A stretch of 64,000 nt of DNA from a bacterium (lineage in GTDB: Bacteria > Patescibacteriota > Minisyncoccia > Phycocordibacterales > Zambryskibacteraceae): NCBI GenBank assembly GCA_030649135.1, contig JAUSGI010000008.1, positions 64,001 through 128,000 of the forward strand, written 5' to 3'. Of the stretch, positions 32,413 through 59,661 are shown in pieces. Under the pieces are notes generated by a model that was not told the DNA's origin, made no database searches, and was given only the letters and a program-made list of their open reading frames with translations. The translations under genes were made by a program, and so were the position numbers. Position 1 is the stretch's first letter. Each line of letters opens with the position of its first letter.

Positions 32413-32437
32413 AAACCCCGCCAGAGGCGGGGTTTGT
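32413..32437. terminator. Hairpin AACCCCGCC-aga-GGCGGGGTT, intrinsic terminator candidate
   Basis: Perfect 9 bp GC-rich stem with a U-rich flank. Lies after the RRM gene. Confidence 0.55.
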
Positions 32438-34963: not shown

Positions 34964-36628
<1,665 letters not shown>

Positions 36629-37009
36629 TTATTTAATGACTGCTAAAATATTGTCTTCTTTCAAGAGATAAAGTTCCTCGCCGCCCTGTTCAACTTCGTC
36701 ATATCCGTATTTGGAAAAGATGACAACGTCGCCAACCTTAAGACGCACCGGTACCAATTTTCCCTCGATCCATTTCCCCTCCCCGACGGCTAAAACTTTA
36801 CCTTGAGCCGATTTCTCTTTGGTCACGGATTCAGGGAGAATAAAATTGAGTGGAGACTTTTTACCTTGAGCTTGCCCCGCCACGGCGGGGCGCAGTCGAA
36901 TCTCTTCTTCGGTAAAAGGACGAACCAGAACTCTGTCCCCAAAAGGCTTGATCTGGGCTTTTGCTTGCCCGGAGTTTTTGCGAGGGGTTTTTGTATTTTT
37001 CTTTTTCAT
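36629..37009 (-). CDS. groES: Co-chaperonin GroES (with an N-terminal basic extension and a loop insertion)
   Basis: KPFGDRVLVRP...GKVLAVGEG... Confidence 0.9.
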   Translation of the reverse strand: MKKKNTKTPRKNSGQAKAQIKPFGDRVLVRPFTEEEIRLRPAVAGQAQGKKSPLNFILPESVTKEKSAQGKVLAVGEGKWIEGKLVPVRLKVGDVVIFSKYGYDEVEQGGEELYLLKEDNILAVIK

Positions 37010-40905: not shown

Positions 40906-42053
40906 TGCGATTCATACCGGTTTTCGCGGCCAGCCTCTTTCTCTCCGTACACTTTGGCAGTACCCTTTACTTCCATTCTTCTTTCTTAAACGATTACTTC
41001 AAACCTAATGTCGTCAGTTTTCTCTTTCTCCTTGGAGCCCTCGGTAATATTTTTCTTTTTTTATTTGCTCCTAAGTTGATTCAACGATTCGGCAAGCGTC
41101 CTCTGCTCTTTTTTTCCCTCGTCCTAACCGCCGCCAGTACGTTTATTTTCGCTTTAACTATCACCCGACCAGTGATTATTTTTGCTTTTATCGTCTACAG
41201 TAGTTTCCTGCCCATGGTTTATTACTGCCTTGATGTTTTCCTGGAAGAACTATCGACAAATGCCAAGACGGGGGAAATCCGGGGTATTTATCTTACTGTA
41301 TTTAATGCCGGCATAGTCGTGGGACCGCTTATTCTGGCGATCTTGGCGCAAGAGGGCCCGCCTACTAAATTTCTGTATTTAGTGGCGGGTCTGTTGTTAA
41401 TACCGCCGGCGATACTAGCGCTTTTTTCTTTCAAATCTCAACAGCCTAAAGCGCACAGCCCCTACCACCATTCCCTGCGATTGCCATTCGGCGATTGGTG
41501 GCATTCCAAAAACATTCAACGCGTTACTTTAGCCAGACTAACACTCGAATTGTTCTTCGCCTTTATGGTTATCTATGTTCCAATTTATCTCCATACTGGG
41601 CTTGGTTTCGCGTGGTCAGAACTTGGTATTATTTTCACCGTTATGCTTCTGCCTTTTGTGCTGTTCGAGTGGCCAGCAGGCGAACTTGCCGACCGTCTCC
41701 TGGGGGAAAAAGAGATTATGAGTGCCGGTTTTTTCATTACTGGCATATCTCTGCTCATCATGCCTTTTATAGGGAAAGTATTTTGGGCATGGATGGCTAT
41801 CCTTTTTATCTCAAGAGTTGGAGCGAGTCTAATCGAGGCGATGACCGAAAGTTATTTCTTTAAACATATCAACGCGCGTGATACCGGTCTGATAAGCATT
41901 TTTCGCTTAACCCGTGCGTCCGGTTTCGTTTTGGGCGCCATAGTCGCCACTCTGACTTTAAATTTTTTCTCGTTCGATAAAATTTTTTTTGCTCTGGCGG
42001 TGATAGTCTTCTTCGGTCTCAAACAAAGTTTGTCTCTCAGAGATACGCGGTAG
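40902..42053 (+). CDS. MFS transporter
   Basis: About 12 TM segments. 383 aa. Confidence 0.8.
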   Translation: MMRFIPVFAASLFLSVHFGSTLYFHSSFLNDYFKPNVVSFLFLLGALGNIFLFLFAPKLIQRFGKRPLLFFSLVLTAASTFIFALTITRPVIIFAFIVYSSFLPMVYYCLDVFLEELSTNAKTGEIRGIYLTVFNAGIVVGPLILAILAQEGPPTKFLYLVAGLLLIPPAILALFSFKSQQPKAHSPYHHSLRLPFGDWWHSKNIQRVTLARLTLELFFAFMVIYVPIYLHTGLGFAWSELGIIFTVMLLPFVLFEWPAGELADRLLGEKEIMSAGFFITGISLLIMPFIGKVFWAWMAILFISRVGASLIEAMTESYFFKHINARDTGLISIFRLTRASGFVLGAIVATLTLNFFSFDKIFFALAVIVFFGLKQSLSLRDTR

Positions 42054-42061
42054 AAAAATTT

Positions 42062-42097
42062 ATAAAAAAATAGGACCCGCCAAGTAGGCCGGGTCCT
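42062..42097 (-). terminator. Intrinsic terminator GGACCCGGCCTACTTGGCGGGTCC + UAUUUUUUUAUA (minus sense)
   Basis: 8 bp GC stem followed by a U-run on the minus strand. Downstream of cassette gene 1. Confidence 0.65.
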
Positions 42098-42133
42098 GTG
42101 GCAGTTTGGGGAGGTCTGCCAACCTTTACTTCT

Positions 42134-42322
42134 CTACTCGGCGGGTCGGAACTTACGACGAGGCCGACTTTGTTTCAGGTCTTCGTCACACCCTACCATC
42201 TCCCTTTCTATCACATCCTGGTCAGAGAGGTCTTCATCCTCCGACCCATGCATCAGTCCAAAACCCTTAAGGAGTCGAATTTCCTTACTCGAAGGATCTA
42301 CGCCTGTCTTTCTCTTTTTCAT
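42134..42322 (-). CDS. Hypothetical small protein (62 aa), GC-rich island cassette 1
   Basis: SD AAGGAGCCCAG-ATG. TTGACAA -35-like element upstream. Confidence 0.45.
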   Translation of the reverse strand: MKKRKTGVDPSSKEIRLLKGFGLMHGSEDEDLSDQDVIEREMVGCDEDLKQSRPRRKFRPAE

Positions 42323-42446
42323 CTGGGCTCCTTATGTCCTGCTTCCCTTTCGATTATGTTCAGGGTGAAGGCTTACAGACACTAACGCTCTGTCCTTTAG
42401 AGTGGCATGAACAAGCTAGTTTGTCAATTAGTTGTAATCGTTGTAT

Positions 42447-42478
42447 AGAAAAAGGACCCTCCATGCTGGCAGGGTCCC
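42447..42478 (-). terminator. Intrinsic terminator GGGACCCUGCCAGCAUGGAGGGUCC + UUUUUCUAU (minus sense), preceded by a second hairpin at 42486-42505
   Basis: Hairpin followed by a U-run. Downstream of cassette gene 2. Stem-loop sequence related to the terminator at 43443-43479. Confidence 0.65.
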
Positions 42479-42555
42479 GTTGTGAGTTGAGGCCGTGTCC
42501 TCAACTCGTTTGTACTTAGGCGTGACATCGGCACGCATTGGGATCTGAAACTCTG

Positions 42556-42786
42556 CTAGTCCCCGATCGCCCCACTTCGTGAGAACGGGCGAGAGACGCC
42601 CGGTAACACCCGGGACGGATCCATCCCGAGGCGCTGCCTCAGCCACGCGACCCACTCCGGATAGCTCGGAGTGAGAAGCACGACGACCTCGTCGTAGGTC
42701 GGCGTGTCCCCAAGCACGTCGCACACGGCTGGCAAAAGAAGCCGGCGTGTTTCCTTGTCGAGTCTCCGACCCGATGCGTCATTCAT
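42556..42786 (-). CDS. Hypothetical small protein (76 aa), cassette 2
   Basis: SD GAGGAGAAGG before the ATG. Structured GC-rich leader. Confidence 0.45.
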   Translation of the reverse strand: MNDASGRRLDKETRRLLLPAVCDVLGDTPTYDEVVVLLTPSYPEWVAWLRQRLGMDPSRVLPGVSRPFSRSGAIGD

Positions 42787-42920
42787 TGCCTTCTCCTCAT
42801 CGCGCTTTGCGCGACTTTAAACATTTAGCAGTGCGTCCTCTTGCGAGGCCTATACGCACTGCGGTTCAGCCCCCTCTGTGCGGGGAATCGATACTTGATT
42901 ATATTTTCTTTCTCAAAGAA

Positions 42921-42977
42921 CTAACTGTTTCGCCCTTTCGGACTCATCAGCGCAGATACACATCTGCGAACAGCGGG
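42921..42977 (-). ncRNA. Candidate hammerhead ribozyme (type III topology, minimal)
   Basis: Minus strand 5'-CCCGCUGUU|CGCAGAU-GUGU-AUCUGCG-CUGAUGA-GUCC-GAAA-GGGC-GAAAC-AGUUAG-3'. Conserved CUGAUGA and GAAA cores. Helix I is a 7 bp hairpin. Helix II is GUCC/GGGC with a GAAA loop. Helix III is a 5 bp pairing of CUGU(U)/ACAG. Cleavage triplet GUU. Confidence 0.45.
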
Positions 42978-43019
42978 AAGTTTTGCTGAGATACTTCCCG
43001 AAACTCTGGGTTTGCACGG

Positions 43020-43340
43020 TTACCCCTTCTTCTTCTTGCTACCGGCACCCATGCCAGCGGCCATCCGGCGCTGCTCCTCCGCGCGCTCGCTCCGGTGGGC
43101 GAGGTAGCGCTTGTGCGCCGCCTCACGGATGGAGGCCGAGAACTCGGTCTCCTTCCGACGCCGCTCGGACAGCATGCGCCTGGCGCACGCCAGGCGTGGC
43201 CGCCAGAAATCGGAGGTCGCGAGTTGCTTGTCGAGCTCGACCGCGGCGATATCCGCCGCAACGGTCGAAGTGGCGACCTGCACCGGCAGGGTGCAGGCCA
43301 GAAACTCTATCACTCGGCCAATGGAGCGTGTCGCATTCAT
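43020..43340 (-). CDS. Hypothetical protein (106 aa, helical, basic C-terminal tail), cassette 3
   Basis: SD AGGAG. Promoter TTGACAA-17-TATCAT upstream. Confidence 0.5.
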   Translation of the reverse strand: MNATRSIGRVIEFLACTLPVQVATSTVAADIAAVELDKQLATSDFWRPRLACARRMLSERRRKETEFSASIREAAHKRYLAHRSERAEEQRRMAAGMGAGSKKKKG

Positions 43341-43402
43341 GGCGTTCTCCTTATCGTGCCTCCCCTTCGTCTATACTTAGGGTGAGGACTTTCTAGCTAC
43401 AA

Positions 43403-43430
43403 TGATAGCATAATACAACTTATTTGTCAA
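43403..43430 (-). promoter_or_regulatory. Sigma70-like promoter TTGACAA-N17-TATCAT for cassette gene 3
   Basis: Consensus -35 with 17 bp spacing. About 60 nt upstream of the ATG at 43340. Confidence 0.55.
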
Positions 43431-43442
43431 TGGCTTTAAATA

Positions 43443-43479
43443 GTTAAAAGTAAAAGGGCCCTCCGTGTAGGCAGGGCCC
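43443..43479 (-). terminator. Intrinsic terminator GGGCCCUGCCUACACGGAGGGCCC + UUUUACUUUUAAC (minus sense)
   Basis: Downstream of cassette gene 4. Homologous to the 42447-42478 terminator. Confidence 0.65.
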
Positions 43480-43498
43480 AGTCGAAACGCCACCTAGT

Positions 43499-43894
43499 CT
43501 AGTAACTGGTGGGGAAAGCAGATGTCAGCGCCTCCCCCTGGTCGCTTGCCGGGTTGGGGTTGAACCAAACCCGAGAGATGGACCCATGGCCGATGTGATA
43601 CACGCCGGCCAGAGTACATGAGCCATCCCGCTGTGCGGGGTGATGTACGAACACCCCGAAACGCAGACGGGCCAGCGCGGCCGCGATGCAGAACGGCACA
43701 TCCGCGACGGCATAGACGAAGCCATCGCCATGCTCGCGGACGTAGTCCGCGAGCCCATCCGTGGTGACGAACACCGTGGGGTCCTTCACGATCTCCACGT
43801 AAACACCGTGGAGAGTTCGCATCGCCCGCCGCTGTGTGGGCGACATGTCGTAACGCGATAACCAATAAATCCTCCCGATGTAAATTCTGTTCAT
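43499..43894 (-). CDS. Hypothetical protein (131 aa from MNRIYIGRIYW...), cassette 4
   Basis: The ORF track starts at 43969, but that ATG lies inside the promoter. The ATG at 43894 has SD GGGAGG...GGGGGAACC. Contains DGSCTLAGVYHIGHG (possible Cys/His catalytic pair). Confidence 0.5.
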   Translation of the reverse strand: MNRIYIGRIYWLSRYDMSPTQRRAMRTLHGVYVEIVKDPTVFVTTDGLADYVREHGDGFVYAVADVPFCIAAALARLRFGVFVHHPAQRDGSCTLAGVYHIGHGSISRVWFNPNPASDQGEALTSAFPTSY

Positions 43895-43959
43895 GGTTCC
43901 CCCACTCTGCCTCCCATTTCTCGGAGGGCTATAGGTAATACAACCTTGGTCTGCTCTCA

Positions 43960-43988
43960 CTAATAGCACAGCACAATTCTCTTGTCAA
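43960..43988 (-). promoter_or_regulatory. Sigma70-like promoter TTGACAA-N17-TATTAG for cassette gene 4
   Basis: Consensus -35 with 17 bp spacing. Lies at the island boundary with the AT-rich DUF2231 gene region. Confidence 0.5.
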
Positions 43989-44002
43989 CAGCGTCCATAA
44001 AT

Positions 44003-46114: not shown

Positions 46115-46321
46115 CTAAGACATTTTGGGGATAATAAAGATGGCCAAAATGTATGCGACAAGTCCCGGTACCACCCCGCTGAATATAACTACGAGGAGCC
46201 AAACTAGGCGTAATGGCACTGGGTCAATGCCGAAGTACTCCCCCAGTCCTCCACAGATACCGGCAAAAACCTTGTTGGTATTACTGCGATATAATTTCTT
46301 GGTTTCCATATTGGTTTCCAT
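46115..46321 (-). CDS. PspC-domain membrane protein
   Basis: LYRSNTNKVFAGICGGLGEYFGIDPVPLR is the PspC domain. The start lies within a tandem ATGGAAACCAAT/ATGGAAACCAAG repeat (46321 or 46309). Confidence 0.6.
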   Translation of the reverse strand: METNMETKKLYRSNTNKVFAGICGGLGEYFGIDPVPLRLVWLLVVIFSGVVPGLVAYILAIFIIPKMS

Positions 46322-46360
46322 ATTGGAATTATAACAGATTTCAGGTATCGTATGAACTAT

Positions 46361-46381
46361 TGCGGGATCGTCTAATGGTAG
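46361..46381 (+). pseudogene. 5' half (positions 1-21) of a tRNA-Gln(TTG)-like gene, detached
   Basis: TGCGGGATCGTCTAATGGTAG is identical to the 5' end of the intact tRNA at 57213-57286. The sequence diverges after the D-loop. Confidence 0.6.
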
Positions 46382-46408
46382 CCTGCCCGCCATCGCTGGG
46401 AGTTGAGC

Positions 46409-46479
46409 TGGGAGATCGTCTAATGGTAGGACACCTCCCTCTGAAGGAGGTTATCTTGGTTCGAGTCCAAGTCTCCCAG
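46409..46479 (+). tRNA. tRNA-Gln (anticodon CTG)
   Basis: TGGGAGATCGTCTAATGGTAGGACACCTCCCTCTGAAGGAGGTTATCTTGGTTCGAGTCCAAGTCTCCCAG. U1-A72 pair and G73 discriminator typical of tRNA-Gln. Confidence 0.8.
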
Positions 46480-46574
46480 CTCAGGCCCTAGCAGGCGGGG
46501 ACATCGCCATCCCTGCCCCGCCGTGGCGGGGTGAAAAGGCGAGCATCTTGCTTGTCCCGGCCAGCCGGGCGGGA

Positions 46575-46597
46575 GTCGAGTCCAAGTCCCGCAGCCA
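46575..46597 (+). pseudogene. 3' fragment (T-loop plus acceptor plus CCA) of a tRNA-Gln(TTG)-like gene, detached
   Basis: GTCGAGTCCAAGTCCCGCAGCCA versus GTTCGAATCCAAGTCCCGCAGCCA in the intact copy. The acceptor is complementary to the 46361 half. Confidence 0.55.
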
Positions 46598-46645
46598 GGT
46601 TTGCTATAACTAAGCGCATGAACAAATGTGCTACAATAAGAACAT

Positions 46646-47536
46646 ATGAACAAAATAATCATTGCGCTGGCTGTAATCATGATTGCTGGTTTGGGTGTTT
46701 ACTTTATAAACAAGAGTCCTACAAAGGTAGTAAATCCTCCCGAAAGCCAGAATACTACTGCTACCACTACGCCCATAGCGAAAGAAGAAAATCCAAGCGA
46801 ATCGATTATCGGTAAATCGGTCGAGAATCGCGACATCATCGCCTACCACTACGGCACCGGTGAGACGGAACTATTGTTTATTGGCGGGATACATGGCGGA
46901 TATTCGTGGAATACGGCACTGGTCGCATTTGAGTTGATGGACTATCTCAAGGCAAGCCCCAATATCATTCCCAAGAATATAAAAGTGACGGTCATTCCGG
47001 TACTGAACCCGGACGGTTTGAATAAAGTTGTCGGCACTGCTGGTCGCTTTACCCCATCGGATGTGCCGTCGCCAATATCCGCCACGGTGGCTGGTCGCTT
47101 TAACGCCAATACCGTTGACCTTAATCGTAACTTCGACTGTGACTGGAAAGCTTCAGGCACATGGCAAAGCAAAACCGTCAGCGGCGGAAGCAGGGCTTTC
47201 TCCGAACCCGAAACCCGGGCAATCAAAAGCTACGTAGAATTAAACAAACCAGACGCAGTCGTGACCTGGTATAGTGCCGCAGGGGGTGTCTATGCCTCCG
47301 AGTGCGGTAAGGGCATTTCCGCCGAAACCCGGGCTATCACAAAAGAATTTGCCGATACCTCCGGCTATCCTGCTTTTGATGATTTCGACTTCTATGAGGT
47401 AACGGGCGACATGGTCAATTGGTTTGCCAAGAATAATATCCCAGCCATCAGCGTGCTTCTCACGAACCACACAGACACCGAATGGACAAAAAATCAGAAA
47501 GGCATCCAGGCTCTCCTCAAGTATTACGTCAAATAA
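46646..47536 (+). CDS. M14-family zinc carboxypeptidase (MpaA / gamma-D-Glu-mDAP peptidase-like), paralog 1
   Basis: N-terminal TM. DLNRNFD motif and GGIHGGY. 296 aa. Confidence 0.75.
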   Translation: MNKIIIALAVIMIAGLGVYFINKSPTKVVNPPESQNTTATTTPIAKEENPSESIIGKSVENRDIIAYHYGTGETELLFIGGIHGGYSWNTALVAFELMDYLKASPNIIPKNIKVTVIPVLNPDGLNKVVGTAGRFTPSDVPSPISATVAGRFNANTVDLNRNFDCDWKASGTWQSKTVSGGSRAFSEPETRAIKSYVELNKPDAVVTWYSAAGGVYASECGKGISAETRAITKEFADTSGYPAFDDFDFYEVTGDMVNWFAKNNIPAISVLLTNHTDTEWTKNQKGIQALLKYYVK

Positions 47537-48405
47537 TGCCCAGGAAGGTTATTGTTCCGGTTGTCATTGTCATCTTGGGTATTGGTGCGTTTGTGCTGTT
47601 TAATTTTTACGGAAAATCTAGAGAAGCGCCATCGATAGTAGACTTAGAGCCCAAGTGGCCCCAATTCGAAGTCATCGGCCAATCCGTCGAGGGGCGCAAA
47701 ATTGAAAGTTATACATATGGAGACGGAGATAAATATGTGCTGTTCGTGGGTGGCATCCACGGGGGTTACGAGTGGAACAGTGTACTCCTCGCTTATCAAT
47801 TCATCGACTACTTGGCGGCCAATCCTACTACCGTACCCCCCAATTTAACTATCGCAGTAATACCTTCGGCTAATCCTGACGGAGTCTATAGAGTGGTAAG
47901 CAAAGAAGGTCGTTTTACCAGCACCGATGTTTCTACCGACAAAGAAACCCTGGCCTCGGGACGTTTTAATGCGCACAAGGTAGACCTTAATCGCAACTTT
48001 GACTGCAATTGGAAACCGACAAGCCTGTGGCGAGAGAAGACCGTGAGTGCCGGCTCCGAGCCATTCTCCGAGCCGGAAGCAATGGCACTGCGAACATTTG
48101 TTTTAGAAAACAAACCGGATGCCGTTATCTTTTGGCATAGTCAATCCAACGCTGTGTACGCATCAGAGTGCCAGTCAGGTATTCTTCCGGAAACACTTGA
48201 TATCATGAACGCCTACTCGCGTGCGTCAGGATACCAGGCGGTCAAGTCATTTGACAGTTACGATGTCACAGGCGACTCTGAAGGGTGGCTCGCTTCTATC
48301 GGTATCCCGTCCATTACGGTCGAGCTTAAAGACCACGAGAACATAGAGTGGGAGAAGAACCTAGCCGGTATCAAAGCTATACTCGGATACTATTTGACAA
48401 AATAA
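47536..48405 (+). CDS. M14-family zinc carboxypeptidase, paralog 2
   Basis: Same motifs (VDLNRNFDCNW, GGIHGGYEWN). Start placed at MPRKVIV, overlapping the paralog 1 stop (TAATG). The ORF track starts at 47482. Confidence 0.75.
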   Translation: MPRKVIVPVVIVILGIGAFVLFNFYGKSREAPSIVDLEPKWPQFEVIGQSVEGRKIESYTYGDGDKYVLFVGGIHGGYEWNSVLLAYQFIDYLAANPTTVPPNLTIAVIPSANPDGVYRVVSKEGRFTSTDVSTDKETLASGRFNAHKVDLNRNFDCNWKPTSLWREKTVSAGSEPFSEPEAMALRTFVLENKPDAVIFWHSQSNAVYASECQSGILPETLDIMNAYSRASGYQAVKSFDSYDVTGDSEGWLASIGIPSITVELKDHENIEWEKNLAGIKAILGYYLTK

Positions 48406-48516
48406 GCGAGGTGCGATATACTAGAGCGGTAAATCAGTACTCACAGGTTTCGTTTGGAGATTATCTCTATTACGCAGACGCAAGTCTATAAACCTCACGA
48501 GCGAGGTTTATCTTAT

Positions 48517-49686
48517 ATGCAAAATGGAAATCGCGGCTTTAGGCCGCAAAATAGAGGACGTATAGGCAAGTGGCCCCAGAAGGCCTTTTCTGACGTGTCG
48601 AAGTTTATAAATAAGGATATTATCAACCTTGAGACGGAGCACTTCGCGCCGGAACATTCTTTCGCCGATTTCAAATTCCAAGAAATATTGAATCAAAATA
48701 TCAAAGCGAAGGGCTACATCACTCTTACGCCTATTCAGGATAAGGCCATCCCCTATGTTATGGCCGGCAAAGATATTGTCGGTATCGCCAATACCGGTAC
48801 CGGTAAGACGGCCGCTTTCCTTATCCCACTTATCAATAAAATTATTCTCGACTCCCGAGAGAAGGTCCTGATTGTGGTACCCACCCGTGAGCTGGCGCAC
48901 CAGATAGACGAGGAGCTACGAGTTTTTGCCAAAAACTCAAACCTTTTTTCCGTGCTCTGTATTGGCGGTGTCGGTATGGGTAAACAGATTAGAGAACTCT
49001 ATCAGAGACACCATTTTGTCATCGGCACACCCGGGCGTTTGAAAGACCTCATGGAACAGAAAGTACTTGACCTCTCCGGATTCAAGACTATCGTCCTTGA
49101 TGAGGCTGACAGAATGCTCGATATGGGCTTTATTCGTGATATGCGTTTTATGATGTCAAAAATGCCCAAAGAGAGGCACACGCTCTTCTTCTCCGCCACT
49201 TTATCGCCGGAGATTGAGAAACTTATTCATGAATTCCTACGCGAACCGGTGCGTATCTCGGTGAAAACTCAAGATACTCCCAAGAATGTACACCAAGATG
49301 TGGTGAGAATTCCGAAAGATAAAACCAAACTGGATATCCTTCACAATCTTCTTACGCAAGTGGAGTTTAGTAAGGTGCTCATCTTCGGCCGTACTAAACA
49401 CGGAGTAGAGAAGCTTGCCCATGAGTTAGGAAAGCGAGGTTTCAAAGCCGAATCTATCCACGGCAACAAGAGTCAACCACAAAGACAGCGAGCGCTGGAG
49501 CTCTTCAAGCACGACCACGCCCAAGTGCTTACCGCGACCGATGTGGCCGCACGTGGTCTCGACATTTCCGATGTGACACATGTCATCAACTTTGATTTGC
49601 CGGCTACCTATGACGACTACGTCCATCGTATCGGCCGTACCGGCCGCGGTAGTAAGTCAGGCAAGGCCCTCACATTTATCGAGTAA
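48517..49686 (+). CDS. DEAD-box ATP-dependent RNA helicase
   Basis: Q motif, Walker A (ANTGTGKT), DEAD (VLDEADRML), SAT and HRIGRTGR motifs. Start placed at the first ATG (the ORF track offers a TTG at 48454). Confidence 0.85.
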   Translation: MQNGNRGFRPQNRGRIGKWPQKAFSDVSKFINKDIINLETEHFAPEHSFADFKFQEILNQNIKAKGYITLTPIQDKAIPYVMAGKDIVGIANTGTGKTAAFLIPLINKIILDSREKVLIVVPTRELAHQIDEELRVFAKNSNLFSVLCIGGVGMGKQIRELYQRHHFVIGTPGRLKDLMEQKVLDLSGFKTIVLDEADRMLDMGFIRDMRFMMSKMPKERHTLFFSATLSPEIEKLIHEFLREPVRISVKTQDTPKNVHQDVVRIPKDKTKLDILHNLLTQVEFSKVLIFGRTKHGVEKLAHELGKRGFKAESIHGNKSQPQRQRALELFKHDHAQVLTATDVAARGLDISDVTHVINFDLPATYDDYVHRIGRTGRGSKSGKALTFIE

Positions 49687-58681: not shown

Positions 58682-59661
58682 GAACGTAGTATATCAGATA
58701 CTATTTTGTTAACCTCGTTTGCGTTGTTCGTTTCCATAAGTTTGGCGCGTAAATCCCCTGCTTTATCAAAGCCCGTAACGTAGGCCTTAAAATGTTTCTT
58801 CATCACAGAAAAGTTTTTGTACCCACCGAGCAGTTCTTCAAATAACTTTGTGTGCTCAACCAGCACCCGCAGTTTTTCTTCGGTTGCCGGAACATATCCT
58901 TCCACAAATAGCCACGGGTTTCCGAAAATGGCCCGGCCGAGCATGACACCATCACAGCCCGTCTCTTCGACTCTCATCCTTGCTTCTTTCAAATCTTTAA
59001 CATCCCCATTACCCAAAATTAAAGTGTCTTTACCACTTGCATCACGAATCTCGACTGCCAGTTTGACAAACTCCCAACGAGCGGGCACCTTCGACATTTC
59101 TTTCCTGGTACGAGCATGAATGGTAACCATCGCCACTCCCTCTTTAAGCATTTCTGACAGCCAGCTCTCCAGGTCAGGACGACTGTACCCTATACGAGTT
59201 TTGACCGAGACAGGTAGTGTGCTAGCCCCTTCTTTAGCCGCCCTTACAAGCTCCCGAGCCAGCACCACGTTCTTCATAAGTGATGCGCCGGCACCTTGTT
59301 TCTCGATACTTTTGTCCGGACAACCCATATTTATATCGACACCATCAAAGCCAAGCTCCTTTGCGAGCTCGGCGGCTTTTTTCATATGTTCCGGAGAGGA
59401 GGTAAAGAATTGCGCCACGATTGGCCGCTCCGCTTCGCTATATTCCAGATTCTTCAAAAGTTTCTTTTTCCCCTCTTCCGGCGCAAGTGCCAAGCCGTCG
59501 GCAGAAGTAAATTCTGTCCACATCACGGCGGGTTTACCCCGCCCACCTAGGCGGGGCGAGCCGTACTTAGCGATTATTCTGCGAAAAGCGGCATCCGTAA
59601 CATCCGCCATGGGAGCGAGGACGAAAACAGGTTTTTCTATTTTCTGCCAGAAATTATCCAT
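58678..59661 (-). CDS. dus: tRNA-dihydrouridine synthase
   Basis: VFVLAPMADVTDAAFR... TIM-barrel Dus family. Confidence 0.85.
   Translation of the reverse strand: MDNFWQKIEKPVFVLAPMADVTDAAFRRIIAKYGSPRLGGRGKPAVMWTEFTSADGLALAPEEGKKKLLKNLEYSEAERPIVAQFFTSSPEHMKKAAELAKELGFDGVDINMGCPDKSIEKQGAGASLMKNVVLARELVRAAKEGASTLPVSVKTRIGYSRPDLESWLSEMLKEGVAMVTIHARTRKEMSKVPARWEFVKLAVEIRDASGKDTLILGNGDVKDLKEARMRVEETGCDGVMLGRAIFGNPWLFVEGYVPATEEKLRVLVEHTKLFEELLGGYKNFSVMKKHFKAYVTGFDKAGDLRAKLMETNNANEVNKIVSDILRS

Follow-up and report, generated by a model that had tools for sequence, protein, structure and literature searches.

A 118-nt tRNA-Gln cassette has probably replaced the tRNA-Gln(CUG) gene in which it is nested in a member of the Patescibacteria

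Results

Organization of the nested tRNA-Gln locus

The DNA analyzed here is a 64,000-nt stretch of contig JAUSGI010000008.1 (GenBank assembly GCA_030649135.1; positions 64,001 to 128,000), which is assigned to the Zambryskibacteraceae within the Patescibacteriota and is hereafter called the window. At positions 46361-46597 of its plus strand, a complete tRNA-Gln(CUG) gene lies nested within the remains of another tRNA-Gln gene. A sequence-only reading of the window had described this arrangement as two halves of a tRNA-Gln(TTG)-like gene flanking an intact tRNA-Gln(CTG). The outer halves are indeed real. Positions 46361-46381 are identical to nt 1-21 of the intact tRNA-Gln(UUG) paralog, which is located on the minus strand (57286-57213) and was called by both ARAGORN and Rfam, and four additional nucleotides upstream of 46361 (CTAT) extend this match to 25/25. 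At the other end, 46576-46597 agree with the 3′-terminal 22 nt of the paralog at 21/22 positions, with CCA as the terminus. Within the window these matches have blastn E-values of 1.5e-8 (25-nt match) and 2e-4 (22-nt match) and are far beyond chance. The two acceptor strands of the outer gene, TGCGGGA and TCCCGCA, are complementary, and the 193 nt between the two halves do contain a complete tRNA-Gln(CTG), on which the calls of ARAGORN and Rfam agree. A k-mer comparison with the paralog revealed, however, that the outer gene is present not in two but in four collinear pieces, which are parted by three GC-rich inserts.

All four pieces lie on the plus strand. The first one (46361-46381) comprises the 5′ strands of the acceptor stem and the D-stem as well as the D-loop, and it is also identical to nt 1-21 of the orthologous gene of a related genome (L121:1924-1997; related loci are designated by L numbers). 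The second piece (46500-46511) contains the 3′ strand of the D-stem, the 5′ strand of the anticodon stem and the loop nucleotides AUC, with GACATCGCC at 46500-46508 being collinear with nt 22-30 of paralog and ortholog. The third piece (46532-46550) holds the remaining anticodon loop (UGAAAA, with two extra A), the 3′ strand of the anticodon stem, the variable loop and the 5′ strand of the T-stem; here, AAGGCGAGcATCTTG at 46536-46550 is collinear with tRNA nt 36-50 (14/15). The fourth piece (46576-46597), which covers tRNA nt 53-74, provides the remainder of the T-loop, the 3′ strands of the T-stem and the acceptor stem, G73 and the CCA, and matches the L121 ortholog at 22/22 positions. The 95 nt downstream of the inner tRNA, which had been taken for a mere GC-rich spacer, thus hold the middle of the outer gene in the form of GACATCGCC and AAGGCGAGcATCTTG.

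The three inserts are located at the 3′ edge of the D-loop (118 nt, in the following referred to as the cassette), inside the anticodon (20 nt) and in the T arm (25 nt). The 20-nt insert CCTGCCCCGCCGTGGCGGGG (46512-46531, plus strand) is a solitary GC hairpin that splits the anticodon as C|UG and has the same termini as the cassette arms; its 17-nt core (46515-46531) is identical to positions 36875-36891. The 25-nt insert CTTGTCCCGGCCAGCCGGGCGGGAG (46551-46575, plus strand; boundaries uncertain by 1-2 nt) is not present in the intact ortholog of L121. It is a degenerate GC hairpin, in which CCCGG-CCAG-CCGGG can be read as stem and loop, and G53 and T54 of the outer gene are missing at this insert. 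After in silico deletion of all three inserts the anticodon loop of the outer gene comprises 9 nt (AUCUGAAAA), its T arm is 2 nt short and ARAGORN calls no tRNA at default settings. The outer gene of the window has neither the 7-nt anticodon loop nor the intact T arm nor the detectable cloverleaf of a functional tRNA. ARAGORN called neither a tmRNA nor a permuted tRNA, and a simple scan of the plus strand upstream of the locus found no sigma-70-like promoter.

The Logan assembly of run SRR13727527 equals window positions 46452-49635 base for base and covers the 3′ arm of the cassette, both solitary hairpins and the last outer piece. The arrangement in the window is therefore not an assembly chimera of the contig. 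This Logan contig (L001) stops at 46452, inside the inner tRNA and at T-arm sequence that is common to the TTG paralog, as is expected at a repeat. Likewise, the start of another contig (L123) lies just 2 nt ahead of a nested tRNA-Gln. Short-read assemblies break at nested tRNA-Gln loci, and contig sets will contain too few of them.

The cassette and its inner tRNA

The cassette (46382-46499, plus strand) consists of a 27-nt 5′ arm, a 71-nt tRNA-Gln(CUG) and a 20-nt 3′ arm. The 5′ arm CCTGCCCGCCATCGCTGGGAGTTGAGC (46382-46408) and the 3′ arm CTCAGGCCCTAGCAGGCGGG (46480-46499; one G at the 3′ boundary is ambiguous) are GC-rich and conserved, and they form two helices which clamp the base of the complete tRNA-Gln between them. 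In P1, nt 1-6 of the cassette pair with nt 113-118, i.e., CCUGCC of the 5′ arm with the terminal GGCRGG of the 3′ arm, and in P2, nt 14-19 pair with nt 106-111. The inner tRNA (46409-46479, plus strand; ARAGORN; Rfam RF00005, 63.4 bits), whose end was called at 46479/80 by ARAGORN and Rfam, has the acceptor stem UGGGAGA/UCUCCCA with a U1-A72 pair and the discriminator base G73. Its gene does not encode the CCA, and the same applies to the tRNA-Glu gene at 2536-2607, while three other tRNA genes of the window do encode it. The duplicated octamer GCTGGGAG, which had already been pointed out in the sequence-only reading, was found again at 46395-46402 and 46407-46414. Its first copy is the 5′ strand of P2 and its second copy consists of the last two bases of the arm and the start of the inner acceptor stem; the duplication is internal to the cassette and is no target-site duplication.

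The empty site in a related genome

The neighboring genes of the locus encode a CTP synthase (PyrG), a PspC-domain protein and two M14 peptidases, and their closest homologs are found in metagenome-assembled genomes of Parcubacteria, Zambryskibacteria and Taylorbacteria. The closest relative that was found, L121 (M14 peptidase 80% identical), shares this gene order, with PyrG-PspC upstream and M14-M14-DEAD helicase-cupredoxin-FtsX downstream. Between PspC and the peptidases L121 carries an uninterrupted 74-nt tRNA-Gln(CTG) gene. The earlier proposal that a tRNA gene had been split by an insertion is borne out by this unsplit gene at the same syntenic place.

When joined, the four window pieces amount to 74 nt, and 70/72 aligned positions agree with the tRNA-Gln(CTG) of L121; the joined pieces have 2 extra A in the anticodon loop, and 2 bases are absent from their T arm. 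The T-loop sequence TCGAGT is found in the outer gene of the window as well as in L121, and C|TG is kept at the anticodon of the window. Owing to these three features the outer gene is to be seen as the broken ortholog of the resident tRNA-Gln(CTG) gene and not, as had been assumed, as a remnant of a TTG gene. The TTG paralog itself differs from the tRNA-Gln(CTG) of L121 at 2/74 positions only, and since its body hardly differs from the outer relic, it could have served as donor in a gene conversion. The locus was formerly an ordinary tRNA-Gln(CUG) gene, a state that is kept in L121, and a discrete 118-nt cassette entered this resident gene at the 3′ edge of its D-loop.

A synteny walk via additional M14 homologs (P0005, P0007, P0010, and P0011) found no conservation of the neighborhood past the closest relative. 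Three other loci in which a tRNA-Gln gene follows dnaX may provide a second pair of filled and empty sites, as this gene bears the cassette in L052 and L130 and is uninterrupted in L161.

Recurrence of the cassette and its insertion sites

A scan of a genome collection for two D-loop decamers located 20-50 nt apart was loose, with most of its 119 hits being protein-coding repeats. It led to L052, a locus with the same junction as in the window (GGTAG|CCTGCCC...), and revealed many Patescibacteria loci with partial tRNA-Gln copies. The pattern of a subsequent metagenome scan demanded only the first part of the 5′ arm together with the D arm of the inner tRNA, leaving the outer sequence unconstrained, and yielded 30 loci, 21 of which contain the cassette. 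All 15 distinct cassette sequences (window, L052 and 13 metagenomic ones) are exactly 118 nt long, and all of them are divided, as in the window, into 27 nt of 5′ arm, 71 nt of tRNA-Gln with the acceptor stem UGGGAGA/UCUCCCA and 20 nt of 3′ arm.

In each of the 14 contexts with both flanks visible the cassette lies within a tRNA-Gln gene and on the same strand, and the inner anticodon is always the same as the outer one (14/14), an agreement to be expected of an insert that has to make up for the gene it disrupts. The cassette is found at four sites. Two are in the D-loop, at GGTAG|GAC (window and L052) and at AACGG|TAGGAC (L135 and L137/144). The third lies in the anticodon loop between positions 36 and 37 (CTTTG|GA; L129, L132, L134, L142, L143, L151, and the truncated L155) and the fourth in the T-loop between positions 56 and 57 (GGTTC|GAAT or AAAT; L130, L139, L147, and L148). 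The outer acceptor stems vary by locus (TGCGGGA, TGTCGGA, TGCCGGA, TCGGAGG, TGCCGGG, TGCCGAG). At the 14 contexts no target-site duplication was found and in silico excision is exact; deletion of the 118 nt results in an ARAGORN-callable tRNA-Gln in ten of them. In these sequences the cassette is a discrete unit whose insertions are precise, take place at several loop positions and are confined to the cognate tRNA gene, and whose cargo tRNA is under selection.

Conservation of the inner and decay of the outer copies

Mean pairwise identity among the 15 cassettes is 97% for nt 1-19 of the 5′ arm and 93.5% for the 3′ arm, and only 50% for the inner anticodon stem. The 6-bp helix P1 (CCUGCC/GGCRGG) is paired in 15/15 cassettes, the sole change being U.G to U-A in L052 and L148, and P2 (GCUGGG/CCUAGC) carries one compensatory G-C to A-U change. 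The stems of the inner tRNAs are 97-100% paired over the 15 cassettes. Both the anticodon stem (double changes in 5/5 pairs) and the T stem (double changes in 3/5 pairs) are paired to 100%, and the number of doubly changed cells is 40, compared with 10.4 in shuffles (0/500 shuffles reach 40). With its cloverleaf, the compensatory changes, U1-A72, G73 and a CUG anticodon the inner gene is predicted to encode a bacterial elongator tRNA-Gln.

Defects of the outer copies were scored over the related loci, complemented by a reading of the printed sequences. Only the outer copies of L129, L135 and L139 are without visible defect. Position 55 in the T-loop is C in L130 and L132, stem mismatches are present in L147 (one), L151 (three) and L134 (four), and L143 exhibits an A.C mismatch in the anticodon stem and another one in the acceptor stem. 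The outer copy of L142 has a G.G mismatch in the anticodon stem, a D-loop without GG and a 3′ exon that now carries the inner tRNA sequence. The D arm is lost in L148, the 5′ acceptor strand in L137 and the 3′ half in L052. Additional tRNA-less hairpins with cassette-like ends occur in the outer copies of L151/156 (T-loop), L142/154 (variable region) and L155 (D-loop), and the outer gene of the window likewise holds tRNA-less hairpins in its anticodon loop and T arm, whereas none of the inner tRNAs does (0/15). Had the inner gene taken over from an outer gene killed by the insertion, with the relic then drifting and collecting hairpins, this contrast of flawless inner tRNAs and decaying outer copies is what one would expect to see. 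A related locus with the same arrangement in the form of a functional intron-containing tRNA was not encountered, most related outer copies being visibly degraded. Inner and outer bodies are identical within several loci, yet different between loci, which may be due to gene conversion between closely spaced direct repeats.

Related hairpins and other nested loci

The 17 nt at 36875-36891, which are shared with the core of the 20-nt hairpin, form a perfect GC palindrome (GCCCCGCCGTGGCGGGG) that lies in frame in groES (36629-37009, minus strand). It gives rise to a 7-residue insertion (L-RPAVAG), which is restricted to the closest GroES relatives and lacking in the others, and is reminiscent of Rickettsia palindromic elements (RPEs). 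An imperfect hairpin at the 3′ end of groEL (34973-35003, minus strand) encodes the last residues of the GroEL tail and has stretches of 12 nt (CCCGCCATCGCT) and 11 nt (GCCTGCCCGCC), one on each strand, in common with the 5′ arm of the cassette. The window contains seven other CCCGCC..GGCGGG hairpins, which are possibly related to the cassette. Hairpins with CCCGCC...GGCGGG ends are located, for example, at 32417-32431 (terminator-like, being followed by a T run), 41357-41389 and 59538-59555 (inside an open reading frame, ORF). The heptamer GGCGGGG occurs 23 times in the window vs. approximately 7 expected occurrences. In addition, a region of approximately 1.95 kb (42054-44002) between genes for an MFS-type transporter and a membrane protein is of foreign composition, with a GC content of up to 69.5% (200-nt windows) vs. 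approximately 46% elsewhere. At its start stands a 70-nt hairpin ending in CCCGCC/GGCGGG (42076-42145). None of its three best ORFs (131, 106, and 76 aa) was matched by Pfam, and Rfam gave no hit in the region.

Nested tRNA-Gln genes with different, unrelated arms were observed in L110, L027, L109, L076, L098, L120, L050, L041 and L123. In these loci a long perfect stem often extends the inner acceptor stem, as for instance the 16 bp of GAATTCTTGGCAAAGC in L110. Nesting of tRNA-Gln genes seems to be general in the phylum, with several families of cassettes. In twelve loci (L018, L022, L095, L075, L088, L100, L070, L096, L047, L003, L046, and L009) a 5′ tRNA-Gln fragment is located upstream of an intact tRNA-Gln gene. 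The acceptor strand of these fragments is usually the same as that of the gene, and a variable GC hairpin (CCYGCC...GGCRGG, 18-70 nt) lies between G10 and T11. They are probably older relics of the same process. In ten other loci (L008, L033, L037, L056, L068, L071, L072, L089, L092, and L115) one or two tandem units precede the real gene, each made up of tRNA-Gln nt 1-20 and a downstream hairpin pairing with the D-loop sequence (...CTAATGGTAAGC..GCTTGCCATTAG...); L037 additionally has a 3′ relic downstream.

Two further kinds of insert were noticed. A conserved, structured insert of approximately 100 nt is present in the T-arm/variable region of an interrupted tRNA-Gln in L110 (minus strand, approximately 180 nt downstream of the inner tRNA), L084 and L027, sitting in an outer copy in L110 and L027. 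It is composed of GGTGAG, a covarying hairpin, CGCAAG, GGAG, GGGGTCGCGA, a second covarying hairpin and TTGTGAC, and an Rfam scan of these three loci yielded no family for it. L123, L046 and L145 have another T-loop insert (CTTGGATTCGAAC|AGGAGTGGGGTCGGGAGAGCAC...) in common; no Rfam family was found for it in L046, the one locus of the three that was scanned. Among the loci bearing the 118-nt cassette, small toxin-antitoxin-like ORFs are located near L129, L137/144 and L143.

Discussion

Probable replacement of the resident gene by its insert

It is probable, judging from the sequences compared here, that the 118-nt tRNA-Gln cassette killed the resident tRNA-Gln(CTG) gene and replaced it. The outer pieces are a pseudogene, which after the insertion acquired small indels and two hairpins that belong to the same family but lack a tRNA. 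As the cassette is without an evident promoter of its own, it would probably be transcribed from the promoter of the interrupted gene. RNase P would cut at the 5′ end of the inner tRNA, RNase Z or exonucleases at its 3′ end, and CCA, which is not encoded in the inner gene, would have to be added to the released tRNA. The GC clamp would prevent mispairing between the inner cloverleaf and the outer halves, which are almost the same in sequence. With the resident gene being destroyed by the insertion the cassette tRNA would become the tRNA-Gln(CUG) of the cell, a kill-and-replace event by which the insert would make itself indispensable. The likeness of the outer pieces to the intact paralog may reflect a recent event, gene conversion or both. 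With respect to its spread, the cassette would act as a non-autonomous unit that enters tRNA-Gln genes precisely at their loops and duplicates no target sequence.

Several points weigh against this explanation. Insertion that is confined to loops and always precise is what would be expected of an RNA-level, intron-like process. No candidate for an enzyme moving the cassette came to light: transposase, integrase and GIY-YIG genes are absent from the window, and no reverse transcriptase is encoded near the locus. Among the neighbors of the related loci only GIY-YIG genes recur, in a minority of loci, and the neighbors are otherwise diverse. The 14 contexts share no target motif in their flanks. 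They also stem from one search pattern that requires the D arm of an inner tRNA-Gln and would miss cassettes with other tRNAs or cassettes outside of tRNA genes with a diverged inner tRNA. The outer copies of three loci are still perfect cloverleaves, the identity of inner and outer bodies in several loci demands frequent gene conversion as an added assumption, and the conservation of the arms is higher than a passive hitch-hiker would require.

Possible homing by a free-standing nuclease

One way in which the cassette could spread is homing, in which a free-standing GIY-YIG nuclease encoded next to tRNA-Gln would cut uninterrupted tRNA-Gln genes and repair from a copy containing the cassette would transfer it together with co-converted flanks. 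Such homing would be a possible mechanism within the replacement scenario and does not contradict it; we regard it as unlikely. In four of approximately 14 contexts (L132, L142/154, L147/158, and L155) the cassette is separated by 225-332 nt from a GIY-YIG ORF (PF01541, E-values 1e-9 to 6e-18). A remnant of such a gene adjoins the intact tRNA-Gln of L121 (L121:2100-2340), and a GIY-YIG gene adjoins the nested tRNA-Gln of L075. In addition, the outer 3′ exon of L142 with its inner sequence resembles a co-conversion tract. However, the 64-kb window has no GIY-YIG gene, and these genomes may be rich in small genes of this type anyway. Homing could carry a cassette from one allele to another, but it copies an insert to the same site, which leaves the four different sites unexplained. 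In the tRNA region of phage T4, SegB, a GIY-YIG nuclease whose gene lies beside tRNA genes, promotes the inheritance of the adjacent tRNA region. The likeness of the cassette loci to this system is limited to the adjacency to a nuclease gene, which applies to a minority of them and not to the window copy.

Possible removal at the RNA level

Alternatively, the cassette and the solitary hairpins could be removed like introns at the RNA level, so that one nested gene would give rise to two tRNAs. For example, RNase P and RNase Z could release the inner tRNA, after which the arms would be trimmed and the ends joined by a ligase of the RtcB or Rnl type, or an endonuclease could cut at the base of P1. 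The exact insertion in only D-, anticodon and T-loops, the restoration of a tRNA by in silico removal in 10/14 contexts with three flawless outer copies, and the nearly invariant termini of the arms would all fit with such a process, as would the predicted fold of the anticodon-loop copies, in which the arm helix stacks on the anticodon stem. Yet it appears unlikely. Most outer copies have stem mismatches, a U55C change or lost arms, which the inner tRNAs never have, and the de-inserted outer gene of the window, with its 9-nt anticodon loop and defective T arm, is not called by ARAGORN. As inner and outer anticodons are always the same, a spliced outer tRNA would also be redundant.

The known classes of introns do not match the cassette either. 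Gathering scans of the window and of 18 related loci as well as an E-value scan of 46300-46660 with Rfam yielded only tRNA at these loci, and neither a group I nor a group II intron core was recognized. Group I introns have been reported from tRNA genes of Patescibacteria and cyanobacteria (PMC13011429), which are likewise interrupted in a loop and partly belong to the same phylum; the cassette, in contrast, lacks a group I core and is far too short. This survey of tRNA introns in Patescibacteria mentions neither tRNA-Gln nor nested tRNAs. An intron spliced by proteins, as in archaea and eukaryotes, would be recognizable by a bulge-helix-bulge geometry, in which the splice sites lie in two bulges of 3 nt with a 4-bp helix between them, or by its relaxed form HBh′. 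Here, the first base of the cassette (nt 1) is paired with the last one (nt 118) in 15/15 cassettes and the predicted folds show an uninterrupted helix at the junction. Moreover, the exon nucleotides adjoining the junction vary from site to site, which leaves no room for a conserved exon-intron helix. Archaeal multi-intron and split tRNA genes (e.g., of Thermoproteales, with intron transposition) do resemble the nested loci in having short, GC-rich, structured inserts in the D-, anticodon and T-loop, up to three inserts per gene and related inserts at different positions. They differ from them in that the host here is a bacterium, the junctions are without bulge-helix-bulge, the interrupted genes are decaying and one of the inserts contains a complete tRNA.

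A variant in which the cassette and the tRNA-less hairpins are protein-dependent bacterial tRNA introns of a new kind is improbable in our view. In this variant the embedded tRNA would recruit RNase P and RNase Z, the clamp would hold the outer halves and a ligase would rejoin them, again resulting in two tRNAs. The excised RNA might re-enter accessible tRNA loops, and this re-entry would explain the loop-only, precise and multi-site distribution.

Local rearrangement and integration of larger elements as improbable alternatives

The sequence-only reading had offered recombination between tRNA paralogs and integrase-mediated events as causes, and both fared poorly. A duplication or recombination of the resident CTG and TTG paralogs without any imported unit would fit with the near-identity of the outer pieces and the TTG paralog, which lies at a distance of 11 kb, and with D- and T-arm sequences common to inner and outer copy. 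It is very improbable, as the inner acceptor and anticodon stems differ from both resident genes and a tandem duplication or unequal crossover yields hybrid tandem genes and not a nested gene. The 118-nt unit is found with the same arms in 14 other sequences with unrelated outer copies and at other positions; no fewer than 13 other tRNA-Gln genes, which vary in their acceptor stems, contain this constant insert, and it occupies four different positions.

An integrase-borne island or prophage that had entered and later left the tRNA gene is equally hard to credit, even though tRNA genes are classical integration sites whose elements often bring a replacement tRNA segment and small mobile-looking genes (GIY-YIG, RelE/ParE-like) occur near some related loci: the neighbors (PyrG, PspC, M14) include no integrase, the insert of fixed length comprises only 118 nt without an ORF and thus no island, a single gene supplies both flanking pieces, as complementary halves and not as direct repeats of the attachment-site (att) type, the D-loop is among the insertion points whereas classical att cores extend from the anticodon or T-loop to the 3′ end, and, apart from a single chance match to GC-rich coding DNA, nothing turned up when viral contigs were scanned for the cassette. 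Islands and prophages targeting tRNA genes nevertheless share with the cassette that they hit an essential tRNA gene, supply tRNA sequence and leave a displaced fragment. They differ from the cassette, which measures 118 nt, has no recombinase, contains a whole tRNA instead of a 3′ part, is nested between relic halves without direct repeats and occurs at no fewer than four positions including the D-loop.

Relation to small palindromic elements

The cassette is comparable to other small, non-coding, GC-rich palindromic units such as repetitive extragenic palindromes (REPs) and bacterial interspersed mosaic elements, RPEs, miniature inverted-repeat transposable elements (MITEs) and palindrome-associated transposable elements (PATEs) derived from IS200/IS605. 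Like MITEs, REPs and RPEs the cassette has inverted-repeat ends (CCUGCC...GGCRGG, paired in 15/15). However, neither target duplications nor many unrelated sites were found, and the form bearing a tRNA was seen only in tRNA-Gln genes. A fixed target tetra- or pentanucleotide, 3′ of which IS200/IS605-type elements insert, is also absent, with the left flanks ending variably in ACGG, GTAG, TTTG, GTTC or GTCC. The cassette stands apart from all these units in carrying a putatively functional tRNA and in being found only inside the cognate tRNA gene. A literature search retrieved no description of nested tRNA-Gln genes or of the cassette, although journals beyond the searchable library may hold some.

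Implications

If the cassette did replace the gene it broke, Patescibacteria would hold a tiny non-autonomous unit which owes its survival to disrupting an essential tRNA gene while supplying the replacement itself. To our knowledge, it would be the smallest such element. We know of no transposition chemistry that explains an insertion which is targeted to loops, free of duplications and possible at multiple positions. Candidate mechanisms are DNA structure-specific or RNA-mediated insertion and nuclease-driven homing, and these are testable with existing metagenomes and metatranscriptomes. Replacement by the cassette would represent a new route of tRNA gene turnover and would explain both the half-tRNAs littering tRNA-Gln loci and the assembly breaks at these loci. 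The recurrence of the cassette in other Patescibacteria appears to point to an as yet undescribed small insertion element.

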